A DNA stretch of 64,000 bases from Paraspadella gotoi (taxonomy: Eukaryota > Animalia > Chaetognatha). The stretch is taken from positions 17,718,265 to 17,782,264 of the forward strand of contig CM119269.1 of the NCBI GenBank assembly GCA_051294375.1, given 5' to 3'. Made by a program: the position numbers and the translations under genes. Positions 2,746 to 63,134 of this stretch are shown here, in pieces (within the stretch, counting starts at the first letter, position 1; every line of letters starts with the position of its first letter). The notes beneath the pieces are model-generated. The model did no database searches, was not told the DNA's origin, and saw nothing but the letters and a program-made list of their open reading frames with translations.

Positions 2746-3343
2746 TCTGGCGAATCCTAAATTCACCTCCCGTATAGCTTGGTGAAACTCAGCTAATCCC
2801 ATTAACTTGGACAGCTAAGTACTTGTTCACCAACCGTAAGTTCCAGGTTCAATCCCCTCACGGTCACGCTGGTTAAAGTGTGATGGTGTCAGCATAAACA
2901 CGCCAGTGACATGGGGTGGTCACTGCAGGTCCAAAGCCCTGAGCGACAGTTGTCAGATGTCTTACACCCCAGACATCACACATGTTTCCCTGTGAGAGGT
3001 GAACTCTACTATTGAACACGCAACCGCTGCCTACCGTCGCTCATTGCTTAAGGGTATGCATCCCACACTCTGTGGCAATGAGTCAGTCACTCTGGGTTTG
3101 GTGACCCCAGTATATCATCTTAGGGGCTCATGTGGCAAATCCTAAATTCGCCTCCCATAGAGCTTGGTGAAACTCAGCTCTTCCCATTAGCTTGGACAGC
3201 TAAGTACTCGTTCACCAACTCATGGTCACGCTAGTTAAAGTGATTGTGTCGGCATAAACACGCCACAGACATGGAGTGGTCACTACATAAGGCCTTGAGC
3301 GCAAGCTGTCAGGAGATGCCTCACACATGTCTCCCCGTTGCCT
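2746..3343 (+). mobile_element. TRIM-like non-autonomous LTR element, family A (twister ribozyme in LTR)
   Basis: Direct repeats start at 2746 (TCTGGCGAATCC) and 3131 (TGTGGCAAATCC). Between them lie the PBS TGGTGACCCC (3099-3108, complementary to the tRNA-Trp 3' end) and a short purine tract AGGGG just before the second repeat. B-box GGTTCAATCCC at 2846-2856. The second repeat carries internal deletions and is truncated. Confidence 0.75.
2863..2947 (+). ncRNA. Twister ribozyme, type P5 permutation
   Basis: P5 CGCT/AGCG; P2 GTGT/ACAC; conserved GA followed by T1 strand TGG; palindromic P1 TGTCAGCA; conserved U^AA at 2895-2897; T2 GC; P3 CAGTGAC/GTCACTG; P4 CAGG/CCTG; L4 TCCA-AAGC. All conserved twister core residues are present. 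Confidence 0.85.
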
Positions 3344-4252
3344 GAATATATTTTTAAAGTTTAAAAGAAAATCCTTCCAATCATTCAAATGTCTCACAAA
3401 GGCTCTTATTGGCTTTATACGCGCACCTAATCTTTAAGAACATCTTTTATTCCTTCACTTCATACAAATCAAACATTTAACATAAAAAAAATAAATAAAT
3501 AAATAAAAAAAAAACAAAAAAAAACTTCTGGTCCTACTGAAAATTTAACTCTTAACAAATCACGATCACCAAAAATTATAAATAGGAAACAAAGTTGATT
3601 TAGTACAATAATAAATATACATATTGTAATAAGTTATTTCTATCATACGGTATATAAATTTACTTTTAAATAATAAAATTATCATTTGTAATTAGGTTTT
3701 AAAAAATAAACAATCATCTGATTACAAGAAATAGTTTTAAAAAATTAAATACTATAGACACGATCCAAAGTCAGTAGGCAAGATGGCTTGTTTATTAAAT
3801 AAAAGGATAGTTTATATATTGGTAGTACCAATATGATTACCAATTAAAATAACTACAAAATATTTTTTTTAAAAGTCTATTTACAATTCGACGAATAAAA
3901 ATAAGATTCATGAGATTCCATGAATAGGAGAATTTACCTCATTTGCAGATGAAAGTTCTTGTGTTTTTGCTTTGTAAGTCCACATGAATGTTGAAACGCA
4001 TCGTCGCCGCTCGGTCGTAGTTTTGTTTTTATTTGTGGGGTAACCACAATCATACACTTTCAAATTTTTTTGTTTGGAAAATACTTTATAATAGTACTAC
4101 ATTCTTTTACCGAAGCAAAGAAAGATATTTTCCAAACAAAATTTGACTTGTCTGCTATTTTTTTTAGGGAATTTTTAAAATTCTAAGCCATTTTCATTTC
4201 TAAGATTTTTAGAAGGCATATCTATACATACCAAAAGCTTTTTCTTATATTT

Positions 4253-5623
4253 AAACAAGTTTGAGCAAACAATGTCGGATCTGCCTACGATAATTAATTA
4301 ATTAATAGATTAATTAATTAATTTTAATAATTATAATTTATATTCAGCTTGTCATCATCGATGTCCTTAAAATTGAGTCAGGACAGTTATTAAATGTTTT
4401 GTTTACATTTTATCATAACAAACAAATATTCTCTATTTTATTTTATGTCTCTCTCTCTCTCTCTCTCTCTCACTCTCTCTTACTCTATCTCTCTTTTTTT
4501 ATGCAATTACGACGATCCTTATGCTTTTAGGATTTTTTAAACTTACATCATTTTTTCAACTTGCATAATTTTTCAACTTGCATTCCGTCAAAACTTTATA
4601 TCTACCTTCTTTCACTCACCTTCCTACCGGCTCACAAAATTTCATCTCAATCTATCATGGGTTAAAATAAATAAAAAGATTCAAGTAAATGTGACTCATA
4701 TTTTTTTCATTTAAACTCATTTCCACTGGTACGTTTCCACCGAAACTTATATCAAGCTTCGTCACACATTTTCCTACCCACACACAAAATTTCAACTCAA
4801 TCTATCCATCCAATTATGATTAATTAGAGTATTTATTGGTTAAAAGAAGTAAAAATATTTTAGTAAATGCGACTTATGTTTTTTCCATTTAAACTAATTT
4901 CCACTCACACGATTCCATCGAACTTTATATCCAGCTTTATCACACACTTTCCTACCCACACACAAAATTTAATTCCAATCCACCAGCCAATCACGAGTTA
5001 TTGGAGCTTTTTGCTAAAGTGGGACGGATGGACAAATTGATTGACTAATTAATTAATTATGATTAATTAACTGATAATTATTTGATTTATTAATACATCC
5101 TGCATATACATTTATATATAAAAAGGAAAAAGAAGCATAATCAATAAAACAGGTTTTTGTTTTTTCCATTTAAACTCATTTCCATCGAAACTTGATTTCC
5201 TGTTCAATCACACACTTTCCTACCCACATACAAAATTCCAGGTCAATCAGCCCATCCAATCATGAGCAATTGGTGTTCAAGAGATGAATATATTTTTTGT
5301 TTTTTTCCATTTAAACTCATTTCCACTCAGACGATTCCATCGAAACTTCATATCCAGCTCAATCACACACTTACCTATCCACACACAAAATTTTATTCAA
5401 ATCCATCCATCCAATCGCGAGTAATTGGTGTTTTTTGCTAAGGTGGGACGGACGGACGCGGACAGAGACGGATGGACGGACATCATTTTTTTTGCATAAT
5501 TTATCATAATTCGATGTTCTGACATGATATAAGTTAGTGCCCGACAATATTGAGGGGTGGACCGGCGGACCGACAAAGTGAATTATAGAGTCGGGATCTG
5601 CTGATAAGCAGACCGACTAAAAA
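4253..5623 (-). mobile_element. Helentron-associated (HINE/DINE-1-like) non-autonomous element
   Basis: On the minus strand it starts TTTTTAGTCGGTCTGC..GCAGATCCCGACTCTATA (inverted repeat plus sub-TIR), has a GTCC microsatellite and several internal ~150-180 bp tandem repeats (tttaaactcatttccac..), a second GCAGATCCGAC near the end, and ends CTTGTTT. Confidence 0.7.
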
Positions 5624-6179
5624 TATTAAAATCAATAAATACGGTTAATACAAGCATTAAAATTTTAAAAAAATCATGGTTTTAAGATTGATGAATGTTA
5701 AGATATGAGGTCTATAATCATAGAAACAAAAACCATTTATATTTCATCAGGCAAAATAATAGAAGATTGCGTTAACTATACATTTATTCTTTTTATTGCA
5801 AAGGTTATTTCCATTTGATTTCATAACAAATTAGCGCTGAAGGTAAGCTGAAAAATAAACCCTCCTAAATATATTAAATTATAAAGATGTCTTGCTTTAA
5901 TAAAAAGATAATTATCTGTAAAAAATACTTTAAAGAACTTAAAGACGCTATATAAATTGCTTAAGATTTTATCAAGTTGACAAAGTGGGAAAGAATAAAC
6001 AAGGCTTCATAACAATTAAAGCTCAAATTTATGCCACAAATTCTCAGAACTAAAGTCAGAAAGTATATCAGGACGTTAAGAATTAAGATTTTACATACTA
6101 TACCGAGTGAAGAAGCTGAAACAACTTTTTAACTTATTAAATTGCTTGACTAATTTTGCCAGATCGACAAATGTTTTTT

Positions 6180-6950
6180 TGAAAATATCTCATAAATATT
6201 TTGAGTTTATAATATATGTAATAAAAAATAATTAAACTTCTTTTCAAAAAAAAAAATGTATAACAGTATCATTAATTGAATTTTCTTTATAATTAATATC
6301 CTTATTTGTTTCAGAGTCATGATTTTGGCAGAAGATTTAGTAGTTAATAGTTTGATTTGGTCTTTTCATGAATAATATAAAAGGAAATCCATTTCTCCTC
6401 ATTCAGCAAATGGAAGAGTAGAAACCTTCCTAAAACTGTTTTGTAAATTTTGTGTTAATTTGTTATGCACCTTTGAGGGAGACAGAAGTCTCTGAAGATC
6501 AGTGCTTATTTAAAAATAAATATTATGTTGCTTCCAGAAATAATTTGTTTTCCTTTTATATTATGGCATGAAAAGACCAAATCAAACTATTAACTACTAC
6601 TAATATCCTTATAAAATCATAAATTTTCAAAATCATATTTTTTTAATTATAAGAACAGTTTCGGATTCACCGGAAAAAACTGAAAACAATTTATAAAATA
6701 AGTTTCATGATATTTTGAGGGTAAAGCTACGAAACATGACAAAGGTTTTATCATGTAATAAGTTTCTACTTCAGAGCGTAAAAAAGTGGATAATTTCGAC
6801 CGTTTTTTTCATTTTTTGACGCTGAAAACATTAATTTTTAATAACCTTTTATATTTTTGATTTAACTTTTTATGAAGATTCAGAATCTTCCATAAAAATT
6901 TTGAAAAAAAAGATATTAATATAAATATATTGTATTTAATGATACTGTTC
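6180..6950. repeat. AT-rich fold-back / MITE-like inverted repeat
   Basis: gtagttaatagtttgatttggtcttttcatg (~6340-6370) is the exact reverse complement of ~6567-6597; weaker outer arms (aacagtatcattaa / ttaatgatactgtt). Confidence 0.55.
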
Positions 6951-10195: not shown

Positions 10196-13100
10196 TTAGT
10201 TCCACCGAGGGCGTTTGAAATCAGAAGGTTCTCGAAAATCGGGGCCTCTTCTTCCAGAAATTCCGCGCGGAAATCCCCTTCCGGGAAAACCTCCCCGTTC
10301 CTCAAATTGAAAATTCCGCTATTGAATGGAGTGGGCCGAAAAAGAAAAAAATTCAAATAAATACATACATTGCTGATTTCTGTTTTCGCTTCAATTGTTA
10401 ACTTTTGCATTGCACATCTCAAACAATATGTTGAGGCGGCTTAAGACCATTGGAGATGACAGCTTATTTTTCTGATAACATTTTTTTTAATGCATTTAAC
10501 CATAGAACGGTTGCATTAAAAATCCTATAAGTTGAAAGTTACAATGGTACCACATAGCTGAAAAGTTATGTGCGAGATTATCGTTGAGAAATTTGGTCGT
10601 GAAATCTCGCGCACATCTGGTAGTAGAACCGGCGATTTACCTTCCGCCTCTTTCCCTCCCTTATCAAGAGACAGAAAATAAAAGCATAAAGAGAGATTTC
10701 AATTCCGTTTTTTCTTCAGCTTGCTTCGAATCCACAGTCGGAGGAACAGAATTATTTCACTTACTTTATTTTCCTCCTAAAGAGATAGAACACTGATGGA
10801 AGTACTAGAAAATAGTAATCAATTTAAATTGTATTGAAACTAGAATTATAAAAAAAATATTTAAAAATCCGAAACATGTTATGTAAGCTACAAAACGTCA
10901 TTAGTTAAAATTGAAATTATACTATCTAGGAAAAAAGTATATAACAATTCATTTATTCAATAAAAAGTATACATAATATGAGTAAAACATTCTCAATATT
11001 TGGTATGCCCTTCCTCGGCATTGACTACTGCCTACATTCATCTGGGCATGCTTTCATACTGCTAATTAAGTATGACAGTGAAATATTTTTCCACATCTTT
11101 AACGCAATTCTTTGTAGCCCCGATGTTGATGTTACGCATCTTTCCTTTTTTTCTGAGAGCTATAATAATAATTTTTTGAACCAAATGGCATATACTTTTT
11201 TCCCAGATAGTATGATCAATTTAATTTTTAATTTTTAGGCTTTTCTGGAGATTCTAGATAGAAACTAGTGAATTATTCTAAATCACAAAGACAACATAAT
11301 AAATATATATACTTCGTCGTCGTCATGTAACTTTGAAAGAAAACAGATCAGCATACATGAGAAGCATTGAGCGAGGATTCATTTCATTTTTTTTCATTTT
11401 CATTGGTTTAATTATTCTTTTCCTATTTTTTTCATTTTTCAAACGGAATTAAGTAATTTTCAATAATACCGGCGGTGTTGCCAGTGATAAACCGAAAACG
11501 AGTTATCTTACGTTAGGGGCTTTGGACCCTAGGCCACAAGCGGCTTTATTCTTGAACACTTTTTATATCTTTTAGTTCTCTCAAAAAAAAATTTTCCCCC
11601 TTATTATATTATACATATTACATAAATTATAGTCCGTCGGCGGAATTGAAACAAGAATACACGGTGGTCAAGAATTTTGCTAGGATATCATTTTGTGAAA
11701 GGTATTGAGGCTGTAAACCACCGTAGCCGTCGGTAGGTACTGAATATTTGGTCTCACTATTTCGTTCAAAGGATAAAATGGGTTTGGGTCACTTCTTGGG
11801 TCACTTTTCGTCAGAACTAAGAAATAAATCAAGGAATCGCATACCTATGAGTGTTTGAATTTATTTTTCTTTCTATTGCTTTCACAAGTCAAAGCTTCAA
11901 TGATGATGATAAAACTTTTGATGATCATAAAGACTTTTAAAGAGCCAAGTAAAGAAGAAACGGGGTTATCCGTATCGGGAAAGCCCAATAAGGGATACTT
12001 TTACTTTCGCTGACCGGGGTTAGGGTTAAGGGTGATTTAGGGGTGGTTTAGGGTTTTGGCTGGTTAGGGCGAGGAGGGTTTAAGGTTAGGGTAATTAGGT
12101 AATATTTTTTTAAAAACCGCGGTCGGCGAAAGTAAAATTTAGCCCCTAATAATACTTTTTGAGCCCACGATAACCATTAACCACAGTTCCTTTTCTGGTA
12201 GAGATATCTTTAAAATAAAACGATGACTAAAAAGTGTTTTAACACCAACAATGACAACGATCCAGAAAATCAGTTCCCGCACTAATGTTGCGTTTCCAGA
12301 CGTCGTCAGTTACCACATTCTACTAAATATTATTGTGGACAAATTGAAATTCTAAAAGTAAAACGATGAAAGTCGTAAGGAAATTATGAATATGATTTAT
12401 CCATAGTCCAAGAAAAATATTTAAAAACATGTCTGAATAAAACCGCTCCTTCCTGCGATAAATCTGACTTCCGCTTTAACCTCGATTTATAAATTAAACA
12501 AACCATTCTATAAAGCAAAGGTCATAAAATCCTCTCTTGTGATATTAAACTTTCGCTTTCAATAACAACCGAGTGGAAAGTTCCAAATTACTTAGGTCTT
12601 TTGCTTTTTTCTGAAAATATAATCAAATGATCAGCTTTTTTCATATCACTTTTTTCCAAGAGTGTTACGTACATATAGTTTCGTTAAATGCATGAAATCA
12701 TAAAATGAATTTTTTTTAATAAATGACATTAAAAAAATTGTTATCAGAAAAATTGGCAAAGGTCCACCCATCTTTGATAACCAGATCTATCATAATAACT
12801 GCTCGTAAAAATTTCCGAAGATATTTTGACAACGGCGCTTTTACTAAATTCTCTGTCGTCTGGACGTCAATAAGCATATTTGCTGTCATCCCTTTTCGCA
12901 CAATGAACGCGATTCATCTTTCCGTTACTTCGTTTGTTCTGTTTCATTTTTGCTTCCCCTTTCAAATTTCAAATTCTCTCTCCAGTGGTAGAATTAACAA
13001 TTATTAAAAATTAATTTACAAGGGGAAAATAGAAAAGTATAAGATTGATTAAAGAAATGATGTATCGAAAAAAGTCATAACTGACATATGTGCTTAATGG

Positions 13101-24539: not shown

Positions 24540-27500
24540 TTAAAATTCTTTCAATGACTCCGCCGCTTCTGTAGTTAAAGGGCCTCCGCAACCGGGATGG
24601 TTATTTTTATGGCGAAAGATATCGATTTCATAATCTAATCCGAAGCCGCTTTCTATTACCGTTTCAAATCCTTCTCGGGCGTTTTCTTCCATGTGATTCT
24701 CTATAGTTTTTGGATCTTTATTTTCAAAGACATTGTATTCGACGTGGTCATTCCCTCCACTCCCCGATTCTATCCCTAGCACCCTCGCCCCGCAAGCGGC
24801 CTCGAAAACGTCTGCCGCCGTCACGTAATCCACTGCTACGGGATTCCTCTTTACTTGCTTCAACGCGGCCTTCAATTCCAAAAGCAGACGACCGACCCTC
24901 GGCCGCTTCGATGGCTCCATCGCCCAGCAGCGACGCAGCATGTAGTTGATTGATTTTGGGCAACTGTCGGGCGGCGTTAGCTGATTTCCCTCGCAAACGA
25001 GATTCAAAACCTTCAGTGGAGTTGGAGAATAACGAAAGAATTATCATCGGAAAATCTACAAACGTTTGCCAAGGGTGCTCACTTCCTCGTTGGTTCTCCA
25101 GTCCCATGGACGAGCCCCGTAGGCGAAGATCTCCCAGACCGTGACTCCGAAGCTCCAGACGTCGGAAGCTAATGAGAAGCGTCGATAAAGCAAACTCTCG
25201 GGCGGCATCCAGCGAACGGGCAGGAGGTCGTTGACTTGGATCTGGTCAATGGTGGAGATTGGTCAGAGGATGCTTAACTTGTCAAATGTCTTTAAGGCTT
25301 CGAAAATCACCTTGTAATAGTCACCGCTGTGAATGTTCCTGCTCATCCCAAAATCTCCGAGTTTCACGTTTTTCCTTGAATCAACGAGACAATTCCTAGT
25401 CGCGACGTCGCGGTGGATGAACTTACGATCCGCCAAGAAGCTTAACGCCTCCGCGATTTGGCAGCAGATGTCGATCAACTCTTGCGTCGTTATCCCCGAA
25501 GCGCCCGCGGCGCCGCAACTGTTGCCAGCTGTCGTTTTTGATTCCGAATCTTTCTTGTGCCCGGACTGTCGGGCGTCGTTGCGAGTGACGCATCCTAGAA
25601 GTAAAGGCGTGTCGACTCGTGAAGACTCAGAATCGCCGGAGATTTGGTATAGGCCTTTTGTAGAGTGACGCCTATTCGAGTATTTTGGAGTTTGGGGCAA
25701 AAGAAAGTTTACTATTCGCTAAAATAAACAAGAGAACTTATATTCTATATTATGTCTACTAACTATTTTTTAACTCTAAAGTTTTTATTTAAAAAACTTT
25801 ACATCTGATAACAAGCTTTCCCTTCACCTCAATAAATCTTTACCAAAGATCTGTCTCACCTCAAAAAACTTTTTAGGTCTCCTTGATCCATATATTCAAA
25901 GACCATTAAGAAGGGGTCCACGTCAGTACAGATTCCGTACAGCTGGACGATGTTGCCGTGATTGAAGTTCGACATCATTCGAGCCTCGCGCTCGAAACTA
26001 GACCTAAAAGTTTGAGACTATATGAATAAATTTAAAAATTACTGCTTGTATAAATTTTAGTCGATTTTTAATGTTAATAATTCCGGCAATCTTTTTTCGT
26101 TTCCCGTTGTAGAAAGTGATGTTTTCATTAATTATCCTGTCCTAAATCTTAATAATACGATGGCGGGTTGCCTGTGACGCCCATTGGGATGGCTGATGGC
26201 TTTGGGGGCTTCCGACCCTTAGTGAAGCCTCCTGTCACTGACGCGGTTACCCTAGGACGGTCTCGCTTTGCCAACGCAGAGGGAAGTCGTTAGGGCTTTG
26301 TTTGGAACGCCACGCTTGTGGTGGTGTGTTTCCCCTCTGAGCCAATGGGATTGGCTGAACGACGGTGGATCTGAGGCGGTCTGAATATACCGCCACATTA
26401 TCACACTAATTTACAAACTAATATACATTATACAATATAGATGTATAACAAATATGTAAAACAATAATCATGTAATCATCCTCACTGGACATTTTCGCCT
26501 TTGAGAGTCTTAACGGCGACGTAAACTTCTTCATCGTCGATGCCATTGGCGCTTTCCTCGTCGTCGCCTCTGTCCTTCGCGACGCCCCAGCGCCGCCAGT
26601 GCTCGGCAGAGACACGACCCAAGAAGACGACGCCGAACGCACCCTCTCCGAGATCGCGGACGTGGACGATATCGTCGCGGGGAACATAGCGAGTCTCTTG
26701 AGAGGGAGATCTTTTAATTACTATCTTGGAAAATGAATAAGTCGCCGAAACCTTTTCTAGTTTCTGTAACTTTTATAGCTTTTAATTTTTATATTAAAAA
26801 AAATTATATCTATATAAAAAGTAAGTTTTTTTAATTCAAATAAATTTATTTCAATATGAAGAGAAATATCAGAGTGAGGAATAAAAAAAAGGAGGTATAT
26901 GAAAACATAGTGTTTTGAAATAAATTTTTTTTATATTTAGTTTATTTTTTAGATAAGTAACTATTTATTAATAAATTATAATTTAATACCAAAGTCAAAT
27001 GATGCATAGATCAAACCCCCTGCAGGTTATATTAAATATAAGTATAATAATATAGTAAAAAAATGATTAATATATAATAAATAATTATTTTTTAAAAAAT
27101 TATTATAAAATTAAATAGGTTTGAATTTTTATTCATCTTTTCTTTCATTAGAACTTTATACCTATTGCATTTTGACGAACAATAGCTCATTTGAATTACA
27201 AAAAGATAAATTTTTAAATTGATATTAAAAAAGTTAAAAGTTGTGGCGACCTACACTGCGACACGTATTGGATAGCTGAAATTTACAAAGATATAAAAAT
27301 AAAAAACAAAGTTTTTTAAAAGATGAAGCAATTGGTCCAAGTTCTAATAAAATCAAGAAAAGCGATCAAAAGTTATAGGACGTCAAAATCGATTGGTATA
27401 AAAAAAAAGAATTTTTTTTTTAGTCATTAAAATTAATAACTTTTTTTATTATAAAACCAATTTAGTCTAAAATATCTGTAAGTACAGGTGTCAACCATTT

Positions 27501-32063: not shown

Positions 32064-34384
32064 AAAGAAAGAAAGAAGGAAAGAAAGAAATACAATAAAT
32101 AAATAAATGATATAGTGTATATATAAGGCAATTTATGAAAGAAAGGATAAAATTATAAATGATTCGATGTCAAAAATGACACATAAAATTGAAGAATGAA
32201 TACATTCATTGGAAGTAACAGAGCTTCTTTATATCGTGAACCGTTTTTACGATCATTAGATTTTACTGTGATATCGCGTGAAATCGACACTAGAGGATTT
32301 TTCGAAATAGATTAAATGTGAGTACATCGACCATAAACACAGAGAGATTAGAGAGGAGAGATGAGAGAAAGAGAGAGAGAAGACAATAGACAATGGACAA
32401 TATTAATTACTTGCGGCTTTAGGCACCTTGAGGGCCTTTAAAAGCTACCTATTTCTCAAGAATATTTACAAATTGTAATTGACTTTGAAACAAAAGTGCA
32501 TCGCACTTCTAACTACACTCGGTTGAACAAACTTCATGAAACCTCTCTAATTGACAATGAACACAGATTCGCTCCTTTCCTAGTATTTCCCATCCCAGAA
32601 GTAGTTCTATCGGAGATATATTGGTTGGAATACGATTAAAGAAATTCGATCAATAATGTCATCAAAACAAATTATTAAAACGAATTATCCGAGATAGCAT
32701 TCTGTAGAAAAGTCCGCGTACATATTGCTGTAAGGGAATCATGTCTGCTGCATCTAATAAAATATCAGTAGGGGTATGGAGGTGAAATTTTGAAAAGTTC
32801 TTATGGCAAATACTGAAGCTTGTCAAAATTTTCCCAATGACATCTTGCAGCTGAAGCAAAACATGGTGATGAATACATAAATAATGAGACAACAAGACTA
32901 GAGAATAATTGGTAAAACAAGACGGTAGTTATCATTTGGTACAAATCTAGACAGGCGATTGATTGCTAAAATTTTTGATCTTGCTTTAGTAAATAGATCA
33001 TTTAAATGTAGAGTCCATGTTAATTTTTTATCTAAGTTACATCCATAAAAATTTAACTGTTTGACAAACAGGTATTTTACTACCAAAAAGAAATAGTTCT
33101 ATAGCATAATCATTATAAATATGAGTGCGAGTTAAAAGTAAGAGTTTGACTTATCGGGTAAAAGTTCTAAAAACCACTTTTTGCACCATCCTTCTAAACG
33201 ATTTAAAGTTTTTTGGAGACAAGTTACAGCCTAGCGGGATCCTTTGAGGTAGCCCAGACGGATGAATCATCTGCATATTGTGAGGCATTTTCCAAAACAT
33301 CTGTGCTGTTCCATCGCTGGAGTTGTTGTAGACTTGGTTTGGATTTTCTGTTTCGATTAGTGGAAGATCTTCTACATAGAAAGTAAAGATTTCTGGACTT
33401 AAGACGGCACCTTGTGGGGAGCCACAAATGATTTTTATGGTACGTGAAGTTTCACCTTTACTTATAACACAAAATGTTCGATCACTGATGAATGATACTA
33501 TTATTCGTAACATTTCCTTTGGAATTCCTGATTTTATTAATTTGTATTTTAGACCATCAAGCCAAATTGAGTCAAAAGCTTTTGCATAGTCGAGAGTCAC
33601 CAAAATTGTCACTCCTCTGATTTTAAATCCAAGATGAGCATCTTCTACAAGTCGTACTATGTTTTCTGGGGCAGATCGTCCTTTTTTGTAGCCTGATTGC
33701 AAATTATTCCGTTTACCTCTTAGTTCTAGCATAGATATTAAACCTGGAAGAATTATTCTTTCAAAGAGTTTCCAAGAACTGATAGTAAACTAATTGGCCT
33801 ATAGTTTCTGGATGATGTCCGCGTCTCGTCCTGGTTTTGCAATCATTCTGATGTGAGCGAGTTTCCATGATTTGGGAAAGTAGCCAATGTTTAGGCAGGC
33901 ACGGTATATGGCTAACAAGTGTTCAAGACCTTCTTTTGGCAGGTTTTTCAACATGCCATGAGTAATTCCATCTGGTCCTGCAGCTGATTTTGTTTTTAGA
34001 GATTTGATAAGTTCAACTAAATTTTTCATATTAAGATTTGATTTCATGTATTCTTTAAATTCTTCATTTGTGTGTTCTATTAAACCAGTATGGAATAAAG
34101 CTTCATTTTGTTTGACAAAACTTTCAACATGATTCGCCCACTCAATTCCATATTGTTGGACTGGACTGGTTCCAAGAATACCTTCCAATCTATCTGCAAA
34201 AATATTGAGATTGGCGGCATTGTCTTCAGCTTGAGTGCCGTCAGCTCGATAGACTAGTGCATCTGGTGGGGATGATGGCTTATAGTTTGTCATTCATTGA
34301 TTAATTTCCATTTTTTTGCGGAGTCTTTTTCTCTAGAATTTTTTTAACCTCTTTTTCATAGTAAGAATTTAAATCCTTTTTGTT

Positions 34385-39745: not shown

Positions 39746-42700
39746 AGATAATCTGACGACGTTATAGATTTAATAAAGGGAGAGTATCCCTAATGGGGAA
39801 TGGTTGGGGCTACTAGGCGGGGGTTTAAAGGGGGATTTGAAATTTAGAGTTGCGGACAAGTTGCGGACGAGTTGCGGACGAGTTGCGGACAAGTTGCGGA
39901 CGAGTTGCGGACGAGTTGAGGACGAGATGCGGACGAGTTGCGGACGAGTTGTGGACGAGTTGCGGACGAGATGCGGACAAGTTGCGGACTTTTAGAAAAA
40001 AATTTTTTTTTAATAAGAGTTGCGGACTCTTTGCGGACTCCTTATGATATTACATTTTATCTGACAAGGCAGATTAAATCTTATTTTAATCTGGCAAGGC
40101 AGATTATATCTGAGAGAGATTAAATTTAACTTTAATACAAGTCCGCAACGAGTCCGCAACGAGTCCGCAACGAGTCCGCAACGAGTCCGCAACGAGTCCG
40201 CAACGAGTCCGCAACGAGTCCGCAACGAGTCCGCAACGAGTCCGCAACAAACAAATAAACAGAATTTTAAAAATCGATTTGTGAATGAAATCAACACCTC
40301 GGCGATGACGGGTTTTAAGGGATGTGTGGGTTCAGTTGCTCGTAATTAACTCATTCCGATTACGATGTAGTGTTTTAGTCCGGGCTCTTTTTTACTCATT
40401 TCTTGTGCAAATTTATATGTAAATTCCCTGTTCTATTTCTTATCTGTCCAATAATAAACCAATATGCCATATCTTTTACATTCTTCGATATTATTTTACT
40501 TCCAATATCAAATTTCAACGATTTAGTTCCGAGTACATGGTTTAAATGAGTAAGATGCTTTCGTATTATTTAAAAACAAATTTTATTTTTCAATGGCAGT
40601 ACTTAGATTTAATTGAAAAAAAAAAAATTAACCGATAAGAAAACAATGGCCATTTATAGAGAGAAAATATATATACAATAATCTCATCGAAATTCTCTCA
40701 CGAAAAATTCAAGTACGTTTTTTTATTCACAAATCTTGATGAATCTGAAATTTTTTTCTTGTTACTTCTTTTCTTCATAATTTTTACTTTATCCTTACTT
40801 CTCCTCCAAACACTGATAATTAACTTGAAAGTAATCGTGGTGATCCACCTAGTGATGAAAAAGAAAAGAAATATGGCGCTGGCGATGGCTTACGGCAATA
40901 GTTAACGCAAAAAGAAAACCTGAGTGGAGAAAAGGTGGAAACCCCCGCAGTCATTGTGAGTGGAGCTTCGATTCACCTGCACGTCGCATGTTTGTCGTCC
41001 TGTGAAAATGGAAGAAAAGATGTTTTGAATGAAAAGAACCTTGTTTATGATGCAGTATTTTTATTTTTCTGTTGTATTTTTATTAATGAAAAATGTTTCA
41101 TTATAATTAAATATTTCATTTTTTATTCGAAATATTTACCTTTGTGAAGCTTGAAAAAAGCGTCCTTGGGTATCGAACTCTCGTATACTTATATATTTAT
41201 TATATATTTATTTATATTTCTTTCCTCAATCACTTGATTTCACTCTCTACCCCATGGTCCCCCAATCTATGTAAAATCCTTTTTTAGCCGTGGCTACCGT
41301 TGCATCGGAAGGCTCCCTGCGAAGCGACTTTGCAATCATCCTGGTGGAATCGACATCCTTGGTTGCGATTGTCTTTCCACCATCCGTAAAAAGCCTCGCG
41401 TACTCTGAGGAGGAAATAGAGAGGAAACAGAGAGGAAATATATGAGGAATGACAGATAATCGTCGCCATTGTTGAAATCGTCGTCATCGTCGTCGTCGTC
41501 GTCAGCGCTTATCTCTATCTTTTTTTTTTTTAAATTCGTGTTGTTTTCTATTTTCGTTCTCGCTGTTATCATAATTGATTTTATGATTTATTCGATTAAA
41601 AAAAAATAATAATAAAAAATAACGATTAATTATAATAATATTTATCTTTATTCTTTTTGGATATTGCCAAATCTTAAGAAATCGACCGTGTTACTATTTC
41701 TACTCGTTTTTAACCTATTCCATCTTTGTATTGTTTCGTATACTAAATAATTGACTATAAAGCTGTTCCCGCGTTCTGCTCCCACCTGATCTTCTGGTCA
41801 GGCGGGCACTCGAGCAAGAGGACGTGACGCAGCGGGTCGAGAACATTCTCCAGTCGCTCGTGAGGGGCTTCGTTGATCGTGTGGAGGTTAGTGCAGTCGG
41901 AGGCGACGATTGTGGCGCCGCGGGAGATGGCTTGGCAATGATAGATCACCTTCGAGTGGGATTACGGTTGAATTCTTTTTTATGGATATGATTTTGAAAA
42001 TCTGAGGTTAAACCCTGAGTATTGAGTGAGTATTGAGTAATGAGTGTATTCAGTATTCCGTATTCAATTTGATGTAGGAAAAAAAAAAAGGTTTTGGGAA
42101 AAATGGATCTCGACATAGGTAATAAATTCTTGCATTTAATTACCCAAATAAAAAGAAGGAGCTTCGCAATACATCGCGACCTCACCTCCATGTAATCAAG
42201 ACGATCGGTAAAGCTTCCGCACTTTTGGTTCCTGTTCGAATTCAAGAGCCACGACAGAGAATGAGACATCAAACTCTTCTCCACCGGAAACGAACAACGC
42301 GTCTTTCCGTGGCAGTGGGCGATGGCGATATGCATGGCGTCCTCGGTGCAGTCACCCTACAGAGGGCGCGCAGGGGGTAGAGGAATGGAAGGGAAGGAAA
42401 ATGACGGTTATCTCATGGATCTCAACAATTATCAAAATAACTTTTGGTATTATTTTTATAATATATATGCATAATTAATAAATCATTAAGGATTGACTTT
42501 ACTTTACTTTACTTAGCTTAGCAAACATAATTAAAACGTTATAGTACCGGAGTGTAGGAGCATTGTCTATCGGAGGAACTAGACTTTTGCCAGTAACCAT
42601 AGAATGCCTTGTCCACCACGACAGTGTGGGCAGCTGGGCAGGCAATTTCCAAGCGGTTGGCAGGAATTTGGTACCATCTGTGGAAAAAGAGAGATAGGTA

Positions 42701-49418: not shown

Positions 49419-52400
49419 TCCCTACCTTTTGAGTGTCTTCTTTTCTCCGGTTAGTGTTAAACGGTGGGGGAAACCCGAAAGAAAAACCTGCAACAACAAA
49501 GGAATTTCTGACAGATATCACAGCTTCCTGTAGTATATATACTATATATACTATATAACGATCACTTCCCTATAATATCCTGGTCAAATCGAGAGACTCA
49601 CCGTCGTGACCGTCGACGAGAACGCTCCGGTTCGTGGATCCAAACTCGTTGGTCGCCGTCAGGGTGTACCAGCCCATGTGACCCGCTCCCTTGCGGAAGT
49701 TCAGCTGACCTGGATGGAATTAAAAATGGGTAAATAAAAACACATGCGGATAACGACGTAGATAGACAGATTCCAGGCTCCTTTTACCTTCAACGACGAA
49801 ATCGTCGTGATTATCGTCGTCAGCGGCGCAGTATCGTCGCTGCAAAGAGTAAGAGTTGAAAACGCCAACAACGTGGGACGAACAAGGAATCATTCTGAAT
49901 GAGAGAGCAATTTAAGCGAACCAAATTAAACATTTAAATAAATTACGCTAATCAAATCTTAGATTAAATATAATATAAATCAAAACGATCGAAAGTTTTA
50001 ATTAATCAAATGATTATTATCATTACCATTCTCGAGTTCGCGAAATAATGTTCGGAACAAGAGCAGCAATGATCACTAGCCATTCATCAATTCATACATC
50101 AAAGTCCAGCAATCTCTACCCCTGACCTCATCCTGAGCAAAGTGACGCCCCTCCGATCGAAATGGTCGAAGACATCGGCGATGACCTCCGGTGGCTGCAG
50201 GAACGGCCGACCGTTCTTCGCCCAGCGAAGCAGCGGTGTCGGGTGGCCGATGACGAGGAAGACGGCTGCTGGAAACGCTTGCCCGGCCGAGCGGAGTGTT
50301 TCGAGACGGAGGATCGCGGGAGGACCTGAAGAGTGGACAAAATAGGGAGGCCTCGAAACAGGGTAAAATGAAGAATGGTAGATAAAAGGCTAAACACGTG
50401 GTCTTGAGCTGATGGCTTTATCCATTTAAAGCCATCAGCTCATGACCACGAGGTACCGGGTTCGATCCCAACCCGATGTACATCTGCCTTACGGAAAGCG
50501 TGTGGTCGGCCGTAAGCCACGCCTGGTTCCAAGCCGATGTCATGTCTGCTATCTTCAGCCCACCTAGCATATTATCCACATGGAGTAATTTACATATTTT
50601 TTGTTTTTGTTTTAGACGTTTAAAAACATTAAGTAATCTCAAGTTATAGAACGGTTTTGACCTAAAAATAATTTTTAGTAAGCCAAATTGCATGGCGGAA
50701 AATAAATTACTAAAGAAAGAAAATTGGTCTCTTGTTTTATTAACCTTCGACGACAATGGTGGCGTAAGCGTCGAATTGGCCGACGACGCTCTCCGCTCGG
50801 CACGCGACGACGCCGGAGGCCGTCGACGAGATGTTGGGGACGAGGAGGGTCGACACGAGGCGAGTCGCGGTGTGGGACTGAGTTGGGGGGAGGGCCGGGG
50901 GCAAAGCGGATTTTTTTCAAATCGTGGTTATTAATAATTTATATTTTTATTTTTCCTGATTTGCTTGAATCCAAATAAAAAAAATAAAAACATTTTTTTA
51001 GATATTATTATTATTCAAAATTATTAAGAATGCATGTAAAAAGGAATGAAGTAAAAATTATTCCCACGCCCCAAAAAAGATCAAATAAGTTCTTCCAAAG
51101 TTTAAATTCTTGCATATAAGATTGGTTACTGTTTCTTCATTCTCACCCTCCTCACGACGAAGGGAGGCCCGGACACGCCCAAGTCCCACTCCAGCGTCAC
51201 TTCCGGTTCGACGCTTATGTCGACGTCGCACGAGACTTCCGCGACCTCACCCGCCCTTACGACGACGCGGGCGGACGAGAGGCGGGGGCGGGGAGACTCT
51301 AGAGGGGGAGAATAGGGAAGTGAGTCAAGGAAGACGTCGACGTGAAAATAGTTTAAAATATTATTAGTAATATTAAAAATACATTTAAAACTTTCGTTTT
51401 AATACGTTTTTGAAACGAAGATAAATTTTCAGAGACTCACGGCATTGGAGAAGTCGATCGAGAGCAGATTTAGATTCAGGCGGAATGCATTGGCTCAATA
51501 GTTTTTTCTTGCTTCCTTCAACGTCGAATCTAATCAGACATTTCACTGATTTTAAAAATTTATATTTTATCAATGGAATAATTTTCCTATACTAGTTTTG
51601 TTTTAACAATTTTGTCTATGGGCACTGGGCATTATTACGTACAAAGGGTACTCATTAAAATTGAAATTAATAACAAACCCCGCGGTTCTAGACGATTGCG
51701 TCCAAATGTTGGCGCAGACGCAGTGGAAAGGATTTTCCGCCACGATTCTTGGAAAAAAAAAGCGAAAGAGAAAAAAAGATCATTTTATGTTTGGGAGTAG
51801 AGAACGACGAAAAAACATCGACTTCGAGCATACTCACAGCGTCCTTAAAAATAAATTGCGAAATATCTCCCAACTGAGGACATTAATGGCATTGTGGCTC
51901 AAATGGCTGCAAGAAAAAAAATTGAATTTTAAATGAAGAAAATTTATTTCTTAGAGATTTTGACGGAACAAGCACGTGAATGAACATTAACATACATATC
52001 TGTCAAGGTGAGAAGATTGTCGAAAGCGTCAAGCGAAATCGTTTTGAGATTCGTGTGAACGACAGAACTGGCAATGACAAAATAGATATTCAATTTTTTG
52101 AGTAACTCAATATCATTTGCATACTGTGGTTGTTTTAAATTATTTCTATTTTTCTAATATCTTTTAACTAGGTTTTTATTCGATTCGATATGGATTAATT
52201 ACTATAAGTATTATTTTAATAAGCAAAAATAAATAAAAAAAGGCTATTCAACAATTTCATACATAAAACAAATTAAAAGGGCAACGCACATTTTTTCGAT
52301 TTTGACGAAGACTTCGATGTCTTTCCGTTCGAGCGATGTAATTCTCGGCTGATTAGACACGAGACTGTGAAAAAGACAGTTTGCAGTTAATTTAAAATCT

Positions 52401-56916: not shown

Positions 56917-56930
56917 TCCTCTCATCTCTC

Positions 56931-56977
<47 letters not shown>

Positions 56978-57106: not shown

Positions 57107-57154
<48 letters not shown>

Positions 57155-57382
57155 TCTCTCTCTTTTCTCTCTCTCTCTTCCATGTTATTCTTACCCTAAC
57201 CTTTCCCAACCCAATTTCTCCTCCCCATTTCCGTCAAAGATTCTCCAGAAATCTGTGAGAAATTTCTCCCGCGATTTAATCCTTTTTTCGACATTGATCC
57301 AGATTTTCTGAGTTTTGGATCGCAGCCTCACATTTTTTTATGCCCCCTTTCGTCTTACATTTTTCGCTCTAACTCGAAGGCT

Positions 57383-57448
<66 letters not shown>

Positions 57449-58488: not shown

Positions 58489-58558
<70 letters not shown>

Positions 58559-59920
58559 ATATCTTTGTCTCCTCTGAATTACATCATGACGTTCCTGGGA
58601 TCGCGGGACGTGAGTTTGAAAGAGAGAGAGAGTGAGAGTGAGAAAGAGTGAGAGAGAGAGAGGGAGAGAGAGGGAGATAGAGAAAGATGCCTTCGTAGCG
58701 GAAACAAAGACTGTGAACGCACAAAGAGTGAGAAGAAAAATGGTGAGAAAAAGTGGGGTAAAGTTTTACGTGCGGCCATCGAAAGATCTTTGGAGACCTG
58801 GCGAATGACGCCGACAACTATCGTTAGGGGAACTCATATAGTTTTCTATTTTTTCTCAACCGCTCTTTAAAATATCGAGTGGATTTAATTTTAGAAAGAT
58901 TAGTAATTGTTATCGGAGGACCGTGCCTGTTCCTAAAATAGACTTATTTTTCGTAGAGAAAGATTCGATATTCGTCAAAAAATATTCGCTTGTTGTTAAT
59001 CGAGACAATTGTTGATTTAGGCCATCTCATTTCCAAATTAAATTAAAGCGTTTTCCCAGGACAAGTAGGAGAATTAAAAACATATCTGAGAAAACTTGTG
59101 CTGACTTGTTACGCCAAATGAAATACGGCATGACGTTTCAAAAATGAAACTTCACCTCAGTACGCATCGTAAAACGAGCAAACGACAACTCACAGCTGAT
59201 AGAAGAATTATATCAAGGCAGAATTCTTTCCAAACCTTTTTTTTTTACCTTAATAAGCATGTAAATAATAAGCATGATATGATGATAATTAATTATAAAT
59301 TAATTTAATGAAATAAATTATCTTTATTTATTCGAAATGAAGGGAAACTAAAATTGTTCCTACCTTTCTATTTTTTTTCTTTCTTTGTTGGTTTCTTTCT
59401 TTTTCTCTGCATTAACGAATTTCTGCTATGAAATTACAGATAAAAAGTTTACATTTTAGAGAAACAATCAAAATGGCTGAATTTTTTAAAATTTTAAATA
59501 AAGAAATGAAAAATGGCGCGAAAGTTTAAAAACAAAAAAAATTCTGGCCTTTTTTTCCATCATGAAAGAAAAGAATAAATGAGTGAAAATTTAGGTAGAA
59601 GGTTACGTATAACTAGGGCACTTGTATTGAGAGAGAAAGAGAGAAAGAGAGAAAGAGAGAAAGAGAGAAAGAGAGAAAGAGAATAAGCGAAAGCGTTGAA
59701 TAAAATAAAGGAAAAAAAAAAGAACTAAGGATGGAATGAAAGAGAAAGAAAGAGAAAGTAGGCTATGAAAAGAATAATGTCGCAGAGGAAAAAGAGTCAT
59801 GACCAGAGGCTACGAGAAGTTAACGTTCGGAGCATCGCCAGTTTTTTTTTCCGAGTTTGCTCTTTATTGTTCAGAGAAAAAAAAATCGAATTTTTTCACG
59901 ATTAATATTTTAATATTTAA

Positions 59921-60490
59921 ACTAGGGGTAGCCCCACTCAATGGGGTGAGTCAAAAATTAGAATGATTACATGCTCAAACGAAAATTTATACATTTTTAA
60001 GTAAACTTTCAATGGACAAAACATTTCTTATATGGCTCTATACCCAAATAATTAATTTTTTAATATTTATTTATAAATAAGAAAGGTCAAAAATTTTTTT
60101 TCGAATTTTAAAAGTTTAAGACCAGATTCAGATAGCTCGTAAAAAGTTGTCTACTCAAAGTATAATTCTTTTTTAAATATTTTTATGATAAGTGAGTCAA
60201 AAATAAGAAAAACCGTAAAAAATCTTCATCATCATCTTTCGATGATTTTATCAGTTTTTTTATATTTTCTCTTAGAAAACATAGGAATTTTTAAAAGCTA
60301 TAATTATATTTCTTGTTTAACTTTTTATGCTCTATCAGAATCCATCAAACAATTTTAATATAATATTTAATGTATTAATCAAAACGTATAATGTAAATTT
60401 TTTTGAAAATGATTGCTTAAATATTTAGTCAAGACAACTAAAAAACTTTGTTAATAGTCGAAATTTTATATTATCTCCGGAGTTGGTCCC
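59921..60490 (+). mobile_element. Copy of the AT-rich transposon-like family seen at 23700-24534
   Basis: Starts ACTAGGGGTAGCCCCACTCAATGGGGTGAGTCA; shares aaactttcaatggac and gctctatca.aatc. Confidence 0.55.
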
Positions 60491-60491
60491 T

Positions 60492-60995
60492 ACTTAAACT
60501 GAAAGTCTTGATTGCTATATTTGTTAACGTCTTAGTATTATTAAGAATGGCCATTAAAATTTAGAAACATCATTATTTTAGATTATTTAGTTCTTTGAAA
60601 AGTTTTTATTAAAATTAAATCCATAAATTTTAAATATAATTATATACCTTTGAGAGACATTTCTCTGCCTAAACATTTAAATACTCTTTTGCTCGAGATA
60701 ATGATTATACAATTTAAAAATCGAATTTTTTTTCAAGTAATATTTAGTTTAATTTATGTTCTATGCCTTAAACTGAAAGTCTTGATTGCTATATTTCTTA
60801 ACGTCTTAGTATTATTAAGAATGGCCATTAAAATTCAGAAACACGATTATTTTAAATTATTTAGTTTTTTGAAAATTTTTTATTAAAATTAAATCCTTAG
60901 ATTTAGAATAAAACTAAATATATACCTTTGAAAGACATTTCTCTGCCTAAACGTTTAAATTCTCTTTTGCTCGAGATAATGATTATACAATTTAA
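60492..60995. repeat. ~275-bp tandem duplication
   Basis: cttaaactgaaagtcttgattgctatat...gagataatgattatacaatttaa occurs twice in tandem. Confidence 0.85.
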
Positions 60996-62641
60996 TCAAG
61001 AAAAAAATTCTGATCGTGGTCTTCATATGCTTTAGTGTCGAATATAACGCGGCATATTTTTTGGTAACGCAAGTTCACTGGATGCCAACCTCCATCATTT
61101 AACTTTTATTTATTTAACTTTTATTTATTTAACTTCATCATTTAAGTTTTATGCTTCTAATGAAGGATTTTTTAATTTCCACTTCACTTACACCTAACTT
61201 TACTTTAGGTCTCACAAACTGGGCAAATACTCCTTTAAACTCTTGATTCTGAAAAATAAGTAAACTGTCTCGTGAGCGGCGTAAGTTCTTAATATTTATT
61301 TTTATTATTTTCTCTTTTATTTAGGTTTTGAAGTCAGGTCGACTATTTTCTAATTTAGTGACGCATAAAAAATTCTTAAGGTAACAACAGCAATAAATAA
61401 GGGTTTTCAGAGCTATATAAGAGATATGAGATATGAGATATGAGATATGAGACTGTCATTATGCATTATCTGTGCCATCAATGTACAAAGATATCGCTCG
61501 TGCCAATTTGTCTCTTATCTTAGGTAGAAAACAGGAAATAAAGTAAGGGTAGGCATTAGGTAATATAGGGTGGCGAATTACGACTTGCCCCCCCTCAAAA
61601 CAATTAACATTAGACAAGAAAGGCGATGATTAAGAACCTGTTGACCCTCAACTCAAAACGAGATCCTCGAAATAAGTTGGTCAGTTTCCGCGCATTTCGG
61701 TCGCAAGGGGGCGATTAGGGGCAACTGGGGTCGACTGCTGGGCGTGGTTGACACGGATTATGAAGGACGAGTTCGGAATTTGGTTTCCCCAAAGGAAGGC
61801 GCAGAGGCGTTGGGGCCTTTAAAAGTGATTGACGTTAGCGCGCTGTACCCGAGCACTAGACGTAAAAAGAACATAAGTTCTTTAAGTTTAAAAAAAAAAC
61901 AACAACAAAAAAACAAGAACGGTAATTCCAATGTGTTGCGCCGCAGTGACTGCCTTTTCGAGTGATAACGTGACTCCCGTGACTCGCACTGCATCGGAAT
62001 TCGATCTTTTTTTCATATTTCTTTAGATACAAAAGGTAGCGCTAGCAGTCGCTCAGATTCCAGGTTCAGCAAAATTAACAAAATGTCCCAAGTGTCTCGA
62101 ATGTTGCGAACTAGTAACTACTATTCTACAGGGTAGTGATTCAAAACTTTGAAAATCCCTAACACTCGTGACGCATTAAATATTTCTAAAGAGATTTATT
62201 CATTTGTTCTCTTTAGAATTTTTCTTTTAGCATAGAAATGAGCATAATATTAGTTTTGGGTATATGACACTTGTTGCTTGCAGCACATTTAAATTATTAA
62301 TTTTATAGAACTACCGGAAAGATAAATTCATATATTTTGCTATCTCCTTTATCATGTTTATTTATATTTTTATTGACACAATGCATGCAAATTTCAAATG
62401 AGGAGGGATTTTTATTTTGAAAATCGATCAAAAAAATTAGTTGATAATGAATTTATAATAATGAACTGCTTTAGGTAAAAAAATTAATTGTCCATTAAAG
62501 CGTAGAAAAAATATTAAAATCAATTAGAATCAAAATTCGAATAGTGGATCATGCTTGTACCTGTGAACATTTTTAAATAAAAAATATTTTGAAGAGACAG
62601 TAATTATTGTTATATGTTAGTGACAGAACCGTTCAATATAA

Positions 62642-62715
62642 GCAGTCCCTGAGCTTCGGATCAGGCTGTAACACCATGTTACAGGCGGGTTAAGCGCCCC
62701 GTCCCTCTTAACTGC
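62642..62715 (-). ncRNA. Twister ribozyme, type P5 (3' LTR)
   Basis: P5 GCAGTT/GACTGC; GA plus T1 CGGG pairing with L4 TCCG; palindrome GGCGCT; U^AA (cut 62692/62691); short P2; T2 GC; P3 CTGTAACA/TGTTACAG; P4 CCTGA/TCAGG; L4 TCCG-AAGC. Confidence 0.8.
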
Positions 62716-63060
62716 CAGACGACCACCGGGCAAGAACCCCGGACCTTTGGGTTGGGAGGCGAATGACTTGCCTCCGGCACCAATGGCCGCTGTGAACGGT
62801 TGGTGGATTTTTAGTCCACCATACATCCCCCCTCCCGTAGGGAGAAGTCTGTTGCGTCTCTTCAGTGAATTGTTGTTGTTGTGGAAAGTTCGTCACCAAG
62901 TTGAGGCATGTCGCCTGATGTGTTGTGGGCGGAAAGTGCATCACCAGGTTGAGGCATGTCGCCTGAAAGTGTTGTTGTTGCTGTTGTGTTCGGAAGTCGG
63001 GCTCACAATGAAGAGACAGTAATTATTGATATATGTTAGTGACAGAACCGTTCAATATAA

Positions 63061-63134
63061 GCAGTCCCTGAGCTTCGGATCAGGCTGTAACACCATGTTA
63101 CAGGCGGGTTAAGCGCCCCGTCCCTCTTAACTGC
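63061..63134 (-). ncRNA. Twister ribozyme, type P5 (5' LTR)
   Basis: Identical 74 nt to 62642-62715; cut predicted between 63111 and 63110. Confidence 0.8.

Follow-up and report, generated by a model that had tools for sequence, protein, structure and literature searches.

Self-complementary P1 words in permuted twister folds of animal repeats and their possible pairing between ribozyme copies

Three repeat families (A, B and C) in the 64-kb window, that is, the whole stretch of DNA analysed, have twister folds of the circularly permuted kind (type P5), whose T1 strands covary and in which P1 is only 6-8 nt long (UGUCGGCA in A, UCCUAGGG in B, GGCGCU in C) and self-complementary. This word probably lets two ribozyme copies share one helix, which would speed cleavage where two copies are present; we hold this reading with moderate confidence. 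Dependence on the second copy is expected to be partial, not absolute.

Twister folds in three repeat families

The fold is established in A, B and C (Table 1); the source study for the type-P5 twister is reportedly that of Roth et al. 2014. L1 with U^AA and GA, which hold the catalytic A and G, is present in the first A copy, in B and in both C copies, and is the majority state of family A by contig depth. T1 pairs as CCA/TGG (A), CGG/CCG (B) and CCG/CGG (C), exactly the covariation claimed in the first-pass annotation. An L4 of the form U-NNN-RAGC with T1 and T2 pseudoknots was found in all three families, T2 being GC/GC in A and C and GU/GC in B. P2 and P4 are paired at 4/4 bp each in A and at 3/4 each in B; in family C, P2 has 2-3 bp with a 3-nt strand and P4 has 5 bp. 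P5 is present in A, B and C. These three families, two of them related, make up the evidence base.

Between families T1, P2, P3, P4 and P5 covary, and the conserved core bases are complete in the family forms of A and C. Both observations argue against the folds being inactive or near-inactive relics that hitchhike on successful repeats, an explanation that we consider very improbable; what speaks for it is the lack of an Rfam match at gathering score, the shortened P2 of C with a mispair in its predicted minimum-energy fold, and the decay of B and of the second A copy. Site-specific self-cleavage at U^A is a prediction for A, B and C.

An independent profile (model R1), built solely from viral and prokaryotic sequences, placed the first A copy (22.9 bits, E 9e-4) and the two C copies at its top ranks; on B its match was confined to the L4 part (6.1 bits). 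No Rfam match at the gathering threshold was obtained for A, B or C, nor any hammerhead match, and the Rfam twister-P1 model gave a weak match on the first A copy (22 bits, against a gathering score of 67.2).

The second A copy keeps the P1 word TGTCGGCA but lacks the half with L4 and T1, together with 2 nt of P2. The B repeat lies in sense orientation inside an intron of a tyrosine kinase gene; its fold has intact GA, UAA, L4 and T1, with a single change in each of P2, T2, P3 and P4. Fragment E, which was absent from the first-pass annotation, has a perfect P4/L4 and is without P2', GA, T1' and P1. A, B and E have a common TGTGGCG start, with indistinct 3' ends and TSDs, and may have originated as pseudo-LTRs or tandem repeats.

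Table 1. Coordinates of repeats, twister folds and associated features in the window. The descriptor has a maximum of 22 points, and its relaxed version is uninformative below about 20 points.
Feature	Position	Strand	Remarks
A, first repeat unit	2746-3130	+	385-bp spacing; 3' end approximate
A, B-box-like word	2846-2856	+	within first repeat unit
A copy 1, type-P5 twister fold	2867-2945	+	22/22 descriptor points, sole such match
A copy 1, parts of the fold	P5 2867-70/2942-45, P2' 2878-81, GA 2882-83, T1' 2884-86	+	from the fold
A copy 1, P1 word TGTCAGCA	2887-2894	+	minority variant of TGTCGGCA
A copy 1, predicted cut	after U2895	+	from the fold
A, TGG-starting PBS-like word	3099-3108	+	within first repeat unit
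A, second repeat	3131-3345	+	decayed; right end approximate
Fragment E	11490-11548	-	3' half of a further twister-bearing repeat; 11.1 bits, E 0.46 (model R1)
B, solo repeat	26155-26397	-	homologue of A; ends approximate
B, twister fold	26200-26274	-	19/22 descriptor points; P1 word TCCTAGGG 26250-26257
"Family D", SINE-like repeat	50395-50585	+	B-box-like word 50459-50469; CGGCCG-TAA within; ends approximate
C, TSD ATTT	62586-62589 and 63241-63244	-	4-bp, on either side
C, two-LTR non-coding element	62590-63240	-	LTRs 62590-62823 and 63009-63240, 97% identical
C, twister of 3' LTR	62642-62715	-	P1 word GGCGCT 62693-62698; 17.3 bits, E 0.017
C, polypurine tract	62824-62836	-	precedes 3' LTR; clear in sequence
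C, PBS-like site	62990-63007	-	adjoins 5' LTR
C, twister of 5' LTR	63061-63134	-	P1 word GGCGCT 63112-63117; 17.3 bits, E 0.017

The two-LTR element of family C

Family C is a high-copy LTR element with a short, non-coding interior and one ribozyme fold in each LTR. In run X1, 214 contigs pass from the element into unrelated sequence at 63009, and 41 do so at 63240; since many contigs end at these two positions, the ends of the element are fixed. Predicted cuts lie at 63111/63110 in the 5' LTR, where the 5' strand of P2 has just 3 nt, and at 62692/62691 in the 3' LTR. Of the 64 differences recorded among family C contigs, none of the strongest 40 lies within 63097-63134. The PBS-like site acquires a TGG start through a one-base insertion in 52-95% of contig depth and may resemble the 3' end of tRNA-Trp.

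Self-complementary P1 words

The first-pass annotation had proposed that P1 is replaced by a different palindrome in every twister family. All five words on which this was based occur where they were reported: TGTCAGCA, TCCTAGGG and both GGCGCT words (Table 1), TGTCGGCA at 3247-3254 and CGGCCG at 50507-50512, the last two on the plus strand. The generalisation stands for the three readable families (3/3, A and B being homologous) and breaks down for the fourth, D. The CGGCCG repeat has no catalytic GA before the T1 strand, its P4 is paired at 2/4, and it scores at background level, with 15-16/22 descriptor points (shuffled sequences yield 350-450 such matches per window) and 6.6 bits with model R1 (E 5.1). 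It may derive from a decayed twister; no tRNA gene was found anywhere in the window.

The term "palindrome" is apt in that the P1 words of A, B and C pair with themselves from end to end, provided that G·U pairs are allowed (2 of 8 pairs in A, and the terminal pairs in B and C). In each family the word fills the slot from GA-T1' to U^AA exactly. The copy at 2887 departs from this pattern, the middle of TGTCAGCA not being self-complementary. It is a minority variant: the G at 2891 of the self-pairing form is found in 96.9, 93.4, 96.4 and 88.9% of summed contig depth in four runs, and the self-pairing word is the majority form of family A (89-97% of contig depth).

An intramolecular P1 hairpin, which has at least 4 bp in the controls, is limited to 1-2 bp at most in A, B and C, and any hairpin form costs +2.7 to +5.7 kcal/mol, against -9.5, -11.0 and -8.3 kcal/mol for the duplexes of the words. 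Because P1 is conserved but reported to be dispensable, its lack of a hairpin marks these ribozymes as a variant. Duplexes this stable are reached by just 1-2% of length-matched random words. Given an outer stem, three words that all self-pair in their inner 4 nt would arise by chance with a probability of 0.003 for random letters and 0.13 for letter permutations; by themselves these figures are suggestive but do not decide the matter.

Between the homologous families A and B most P1 positions differ while pairing is kept, and the innermost pair shows a compensatory change from C-G to U-A; no hairpin can form that pair. In family A contigs, changes at P1 positions amount to 0.3-2.7%, similar to the catalytic G (0.8%), and contig depth gave no compensatory P1 variants within the family; copy-level data comprise contigs of families C and A. 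The P1 palindrome is probably under selection.

Control sequences

Permuted twisters of viruses and prokaryotes were used as controls. In one set, 63 of 114 viral loci yielded 35 distinct P1 segments, which are hairpins of 15-35 nt; in a further set, 19 distinct segments of 12-22 nt among the matches listed for 151 viral and prokaryotic loci are hairpins as well. Their loops are mostly UUCG, GNRA or other ordinary types. Full self-pairing was seen in none of the 54 control segments among the matches listed, and a self-pairing centre in none of the 20 even-length segments of the first set. Every control pattern held some of P2 or T1 constant, so the controls are samples and not a census.

Patterns of the A/B type gave no match in viral and metagenome contigs. 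A scan of viral contigs for short P1 returned 97 loci, three of which passed a loose filter and none of which was convincing: one is a misparsed 21-nt P1, and two (6 and 9 nt, with imperfect P4) are chance-like. The metagenome scan (at least 121 loci) held just type-P1 twisters and chance matches among those listed.

Cleavage might also proceed in the monomer, P1 having shrunk to a dispensable, vestigial hairpin or linker of 1-2 bp and its self-complementary centre being due to chance or inheritance. Such an origin, which we judge unlikely, agrees with the reported dispensability of P1 and the tolerance of P1/P2 imperfections, and 6-8 nt can be closed as 1-2 bp with a 4-nt loop. Any hairpin would explain the outer pairs, the permutation null leaves the centre within reach of chance, and the ribozyme would presumably fold locally before the second LTR is made about 400 nt later. 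It is opposed by the random-letter null, by the finding that no credible P1 of the permuted twisters listed from viruses and prokaryotes is shorter than 12 nt, and by a self-pairing centre that survives changes between families and in clam Naiads.

Shared P1 helix between two copies

A P1 shared by two copies, in the manner of double hammerheads, is in our analysis the best reading of the P1 words. Hammerheads with a short palindromic helix III work as dimers (PMC4209133, PMC7229834). Where a transcript spans the two repeats, P5', P2', GA and T1' of one ribozyme, its 5' half, would dock on UAA, P2, P3 and P4/L4 of its partner, the 3' half, and the two P1 words would pair into a helix of 6-8 bp with an active site at either end, as in a double hammerhead. 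Two cuts would release a unit of 419 nt in C, which could be closed into a circle by a host ligase and reverse transcribed, starting at the PBS, by an autonomous LTR element, plant retrozymes offering a precedent for both steps. Slower cleavage would be expected of any circle or solo repeat that has a single ribozyme.

No pairs have to cross in a drawing of the swapped two-copy fold. When the ribozyme is modelled in isolation, a swapped dimer is predicted to be better than two active-type monomers by 11.7 (C) and 13.4 (B) kcal/mol, and by 5.5 kcal/mol for the mismatched A copy. In the whole C element the swapped state is better than two monomers by just 2.2-2.4 kcal/mol, the free MFE is 17-19 kcal/mol lower than either state, and the unconstrained ensemble contains no X:X pairing. 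The predicted fold of C includes a competing T1'/P2 mispair. The circular C monomer is predicted to retain P3, P4 and P5; it is therefore not switched off by refolding. The small energy gap in the whole element is one more point in favour of monomer cleavage.

That the LTR copies build each other's P1, as first proposed, gains from the self-pairing words and the drawable swapped fold, and is weakened by a gain of only about 2 kcal/mol in whole C. The first-pass annotation also supposed that solo LTRs in host introns would stay quiet; B is such a solo copy, sense-oriented in its kinase intron, but several decay changes are present in it as well. The proposed obligate dimer is not upheld, given that P1 is reported to be dispensable and that the swapped form leads by so little. 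A review gives near wild-type twister rates without P1 (PMC5408937); cleavage of P1-less twisters is elsewhere described as inefficient, yet natural P1-poor variants are active (PMC8501958). According to PMC11662667, P1 length and stability of natural twisters are unrelated to cleavage, the literature set being of type P1.

The palindromic words may also owe their selection to RNA-RNA kissing or dimerisation, at the packaging or the reverse transcription step, catalysis being independent of them. Retroviral dimer-initiation loops are a palindromic precedent for RNA dimerisation, the words sit in an apical loop of the predicted C monomer fold, and C is an LTR element that needs LTR-type copying machinery. 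We nevertheless hold this to be quite improbable: in 3/3 families the word occupies exactly the P1 slot, extending from T1' as far as the base that precedes U^AA, it has none of the unpaired flanks of a kissing loop, and Naiads, which do not belong to the LTR elements, have palindromes in this slot as well.

Implications

A bolder reading would be that animal retroelements evolved an obligate two-copy twister independently of the double hammerhead, so that only two-LTR RNA is cut, circles and intronic solo LTRs are spared, and the device recurs in clam Naiads; we regard it as rather doubtful. Dimer-gated cleavage as such is already known for hammerheads (PMC4209133, PMC7229834). If a P1 shared by two copies is real, be it obligate or not, two unrelated ribozyme classes would have converged on one copy-counting trick in retroelements, and there would be a reason for the natural conservation of P1 despite its dispensability in vitro. 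It would also account for Rfam missing a high-copy ribozyme family, and would amount to a compact, concentration-dependent RNA switch.

Comparison with known systems

A, B and C have in common with the type-P5 twister (PMC5408937, PMC6765202; Rfam clan CL00120) the order P2'-GA-T1'-P1-U^AA-P2-GC-P3-P4/L4 with ends in P5, the conserved core and a covarying T1. They differ in that P1 is a self-complementary word of 6-8 nt and not a hairpin of 12-35 nt, in lying in animal repeats and in scoring under Rfam thresholds; family C further differs by its 3-nt P2 strand and 5-bp P4. No published dimer-gated twister was found in our literature search, and type-P5 alignments (Roth 2014, Eiler 2014, Lünse 2017; PMC11662667 supplement) may hold short-P1 cases. 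The T-variant twisters of Perere-3 (RTE) in Schistosoma mansoni (PMC8501958) are likewise animal retroelement twisters with a weak or missing P1, but they are of type P1, lie once per element at the 5' end of a non-LTR element, take P1 from the insertion site and have no palindrome.

Two clam Naiad consensus sequences (supplement of PMC8557442) show, by eye, a P5-type fold with compensatorily differing palindromic P1 blocks, and are alone in matching the L4 words in that supplement. Their P1 segment has about 23 nt with two palindromes, against 6-8 nt here, and they differ by a changed T2 pair, a U·U in T1 and an autonomous Penelope-like element; the available part of PMC8557442 describes no twister in clam Naiads.

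Plant LTR retrozymes (PMC4918200) resemble C as non-coding two-LTR elements with a ribozyme in each LTR and a 4-bp TSD; they have PBS, PPT and solo LTRs, and C has a clear PPT and a PBS-like site. They carry a type III hammerhead where C carries a twister, and C is smaller (LTR about 232 bp, unit 419 nt). Its host is an animal, whereas the animal retrozymes described are without LTR, PBS and PPT; our literature search found no twister reported in an animal non-autonomous element of LTR type.

In the double type I hammerheads of newt and axolotl retrozymes and of Penelope-like elements (PMC4209133, PMC7229834), dimer activity has been demonstrated and helix III is needed for activity, whereas for A, B and C dimer activity is a prediction and twister P1 is reported to be dispensable. 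Like A, B and C, they have a closing helix by the cut site that is reduced to 1-2 bp and carries a palindromic loop, and, as in A and C, the copies lie in direct repeats.

Permuted twister folds in the window

The repeat families A, B and C share a type-P5 permutation of the twister fold, in the order P5', P2', GA, T1', P1 word, U^AA, P2, GC, P3, P4/L4, P5, the P1 word being a self-complementary segment of 6-8 nt. As proposed in the first-pass annotation, T1 covaries (CCA/TGG, CGG/CCG and CCG/CGG in A, B and C), and the five words it reported were all found at their positions. No Rfam match was obtained in the window at gathering scores; below these, a weak twister-P1 match was found at 2891-2962 (22 bits). 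When the window was ranked with a covariance model trained solely on 20 viral and prokaryotic permuted twisters, A1 (the first copy of A) came out on top with both C copies (22.9 and 17.3 bits), followed by a new fragment, E (11.1 bits). B was matched through L4 only, and was accepted as a twister on account of its intact core bases and the alignment of its repeat with A. In family C, the 5' strand of P2 has 3 nt (63107-63109 and 62688-62690, minus strand) opposite GAGG and P4 has 5 bp, with no common insertion in the short P2 strand among the aligned contigs; this is either a structural variant that is fixed in the family or a ribozyme that has weakened.

The claim of a palindrome in every family was retained for A, B and C (G·U pairs being needed) and abandoned for D, a SINE-like repeat lacking GA and a paired P4, which scored 6.6 bits, among background matches, and was not counted as a twister. 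Its T1-like pair (GGT/TCC) is the same as in clam Naiads, so that D could be a twister that is unusual or has decayed.

Among the matches listed, P1 is a hairpin of 12-35 nt in the permuted twisters of prokaryotic genomes and viral contigs, and none of 54 distinct P1 segments (35 from 63/114 loci, 19 from at least 151 further loci) was self-pairing throughout. The search patterns prescribed some of the T1 or P2 sequence. The count leaves aside two weak candidates, of 6 and 9 nt, which are not palindromic and whose P4 is imperfect, as well as an 8-nt reading of a locus that parses better at 20 nt. In many viral and prokaryotic permuted twisters (L335, L338, L343, L344, L350, L356 and others) a 3-5-nt linker replaces P3 and P5 pairing is not evident. 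Two metagenome loci (L113, L152) carry the UAA-P2-GC-P3-P4/L4 half of a twister, but P2'-GA-T1' is absent from the 60 nt flanking it on each side.

Elements carrying the folds

Positions of twister-bearing repeats and other features
Feature	Position	Strand	Details
A1 fold	2867-2945	+	P1 word at 2887-2894
A, second copy		 	P1 word at 3247-3254
B, solo repeat	in tyrosine kinase gene (PF07714) intron, 26004-26486	-	homologue of A; sense orientation; ends approximate
C element	62590-63240	-	two LTRs of ~232 bp, 97% identical; 4-bp TSD, PPT, PBS-like site
D, SINE-like repeat	50395-50585	+	54-nt near-perfect hairpin at 50397-50450; twister-like L4 word
E, fragment	11490-11548	-	3' half of a further twister-bearing repeat, related to A/B
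Word TATTGAAC, 3' of ribozyme in A	3010-3017	+	sequence
Word TATTGAAC, 3' of ribozyme in C	63050-63057, 62631-62638	-	sequence
Presumed B-box-like Pol III word	2846-2856	+	upstream of A ribozyme
Presumed B-box-like Pol III word	50459-50469	+	in D
LINE-type reverse transcriptase fragment (PF00078)	33154-34293	-	
11-bp tandem arrays	39847-39989 and 40140-40248		inverted pair

In four sequencing runs, 10,276, 1,823, 2,372 and 835 contig records aligned to C (depth not being equal to copy number), and contigs of one run (X1) departed from it at shared points, 214 at 63009 and 41 at 63240; C is thus a high-copy element with fixed ends. A is a direct repeat pair, 385 bp apart, whose second copy is decayed and has an approximate right end; A may carry a Pol III promoter itself. 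Homology of E to A/B starts at about the predicted cut site, which could reflect insertion of a cleaved RNA or chance truncation. Words resembling TATTGAAC were seen at the ends of B and E. The window, which is animal DNA, also contains spliced genes (RRM protein, tyrosine kinase, AMP-binding enzyme, C2H2 zinc fingers), and the inverted array pair is of the kind usually seen at the end of a DNA transposon or foldback element.

Pairing and variation of the P1 words

With G·U allowed, UGUCGGCA (A), UCCUAGGG (B) and GGCGCU (C) pair with themselves end to end, with duplex energies of -9.5, -11.0 and -8.3 kcal/mol, the hairpin forms being at +2.7 to +5.7. Between A and B most positions of the word differ and pairing is retained, including the innermost pair. 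The chance of the inner four bases self-pairing in all three families is 0.003 with random letters and 0.13 by letter permutation given the outer stem, the post hoc choice not being corrected for.

The pairing form of the A word makes up 89-97% of contig depth in four runs (three samples); the word at 2887 has a broken centre. No compensatory variation within families was seen in the aligned contigs, nor any P1 change in C among the best 40 of 64 difference rows. Change rates among A copies were 0.3-2.7% at P1 positions versus 0.8% at the catalytic G; the within-family data therefore reflect decay of copies, not selection.

A proposed P1 helix shared by two copies

In a type-P5 twister, P1 forms the tip of one large hairpin, and a palindromic tip would allow two copies to exchange halves and share one P1 (swapped form). 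For isolated ribozymes, the swapped form was better than two active-type monomers by 11.7 (C) and 13.4 (B) kcal/mol, and by 5.5 kcal/mol for the mismatched A1. In the whole C element the gain was 2.2-2.4 kcal/mol, within model error (pseudoknot energy lying outside the model), and in the same model both states lay 17-19 kcal/mol over the unconstrained minimum, in which T1' is mispaired with P2. We favour the two-copy P1, by a modest degree of belief, as the best reading.

This keeps the dimer ribozyme of the first-pass annotation and leaves its strict obligacy unsupported, against which stand the small whole-element gain and reports that P1 is dispensable (PMC5408937, PMC11662667). According to a review (PMC5408937), twisters without P1 cleave at near wild-type rate. 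In a screen of 1,948 scored natural twisters (PMC11662667), whose literature set was of type P1, cleavage was unaffected by how long, stable or imperfect P1 was, and P2 was tolerant; in PMC8501958, P1-less cleavage is called inefficient, yet P1-poor natural variants are active. The passages covered from these three sources include no test of a permuted ribozyme with a short tether. A putative strictly obligate dimer is accordingly doubtful. The activity of P1-less twisters would also suit plain monomer cleavage by each twister, which we regard as unlikely.

P3, P4 and P5 remain formed in the predicted 419-nt C circle, so that circles, should they occur, would have to be restrained by something other than refolding. 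Dimer dependence, if the two-copy P1 is correct, would be such a brake.

Comparison with known systems

In double hammerheads, helix III is common to both copies (PMC4209133, PMC7229834, PMC6765202); the analogy is incomplete since helix III is needed and P1 may not be. The literature searched at title and abstract level, with Roth 2014, Eiler 2014, Lünse 2017 and Košutić 2015 outside its scope, yielded neither a twister dimer nor a twister-bearing LTR retrozyme. C shares its anatomy with plant LTR retrozymes (LTRs, TSD, PPT, candidate PBS; PMC4918200), whereas described animal retrozymes are without LTR, PBS and PPT (PMC7761336, PMC7229834). Inspection by eye of part of the Naiad consensus file (PMC8557442) indicated a P5-type fold in Naiad_Mmer and in the preceding consensus (Naiad_Scon by file order), with two palindromic blocks in the P1 slot; one element has a perfect 12-mer, and in the other the block is changed yet palindromic. 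The architecture of clam Naiads differs from that of the Paraspadella gotoi families, and, as judged from their consensus sequences, they are independent evidence that palindromes accompany the P1 slot in animal retroelements.
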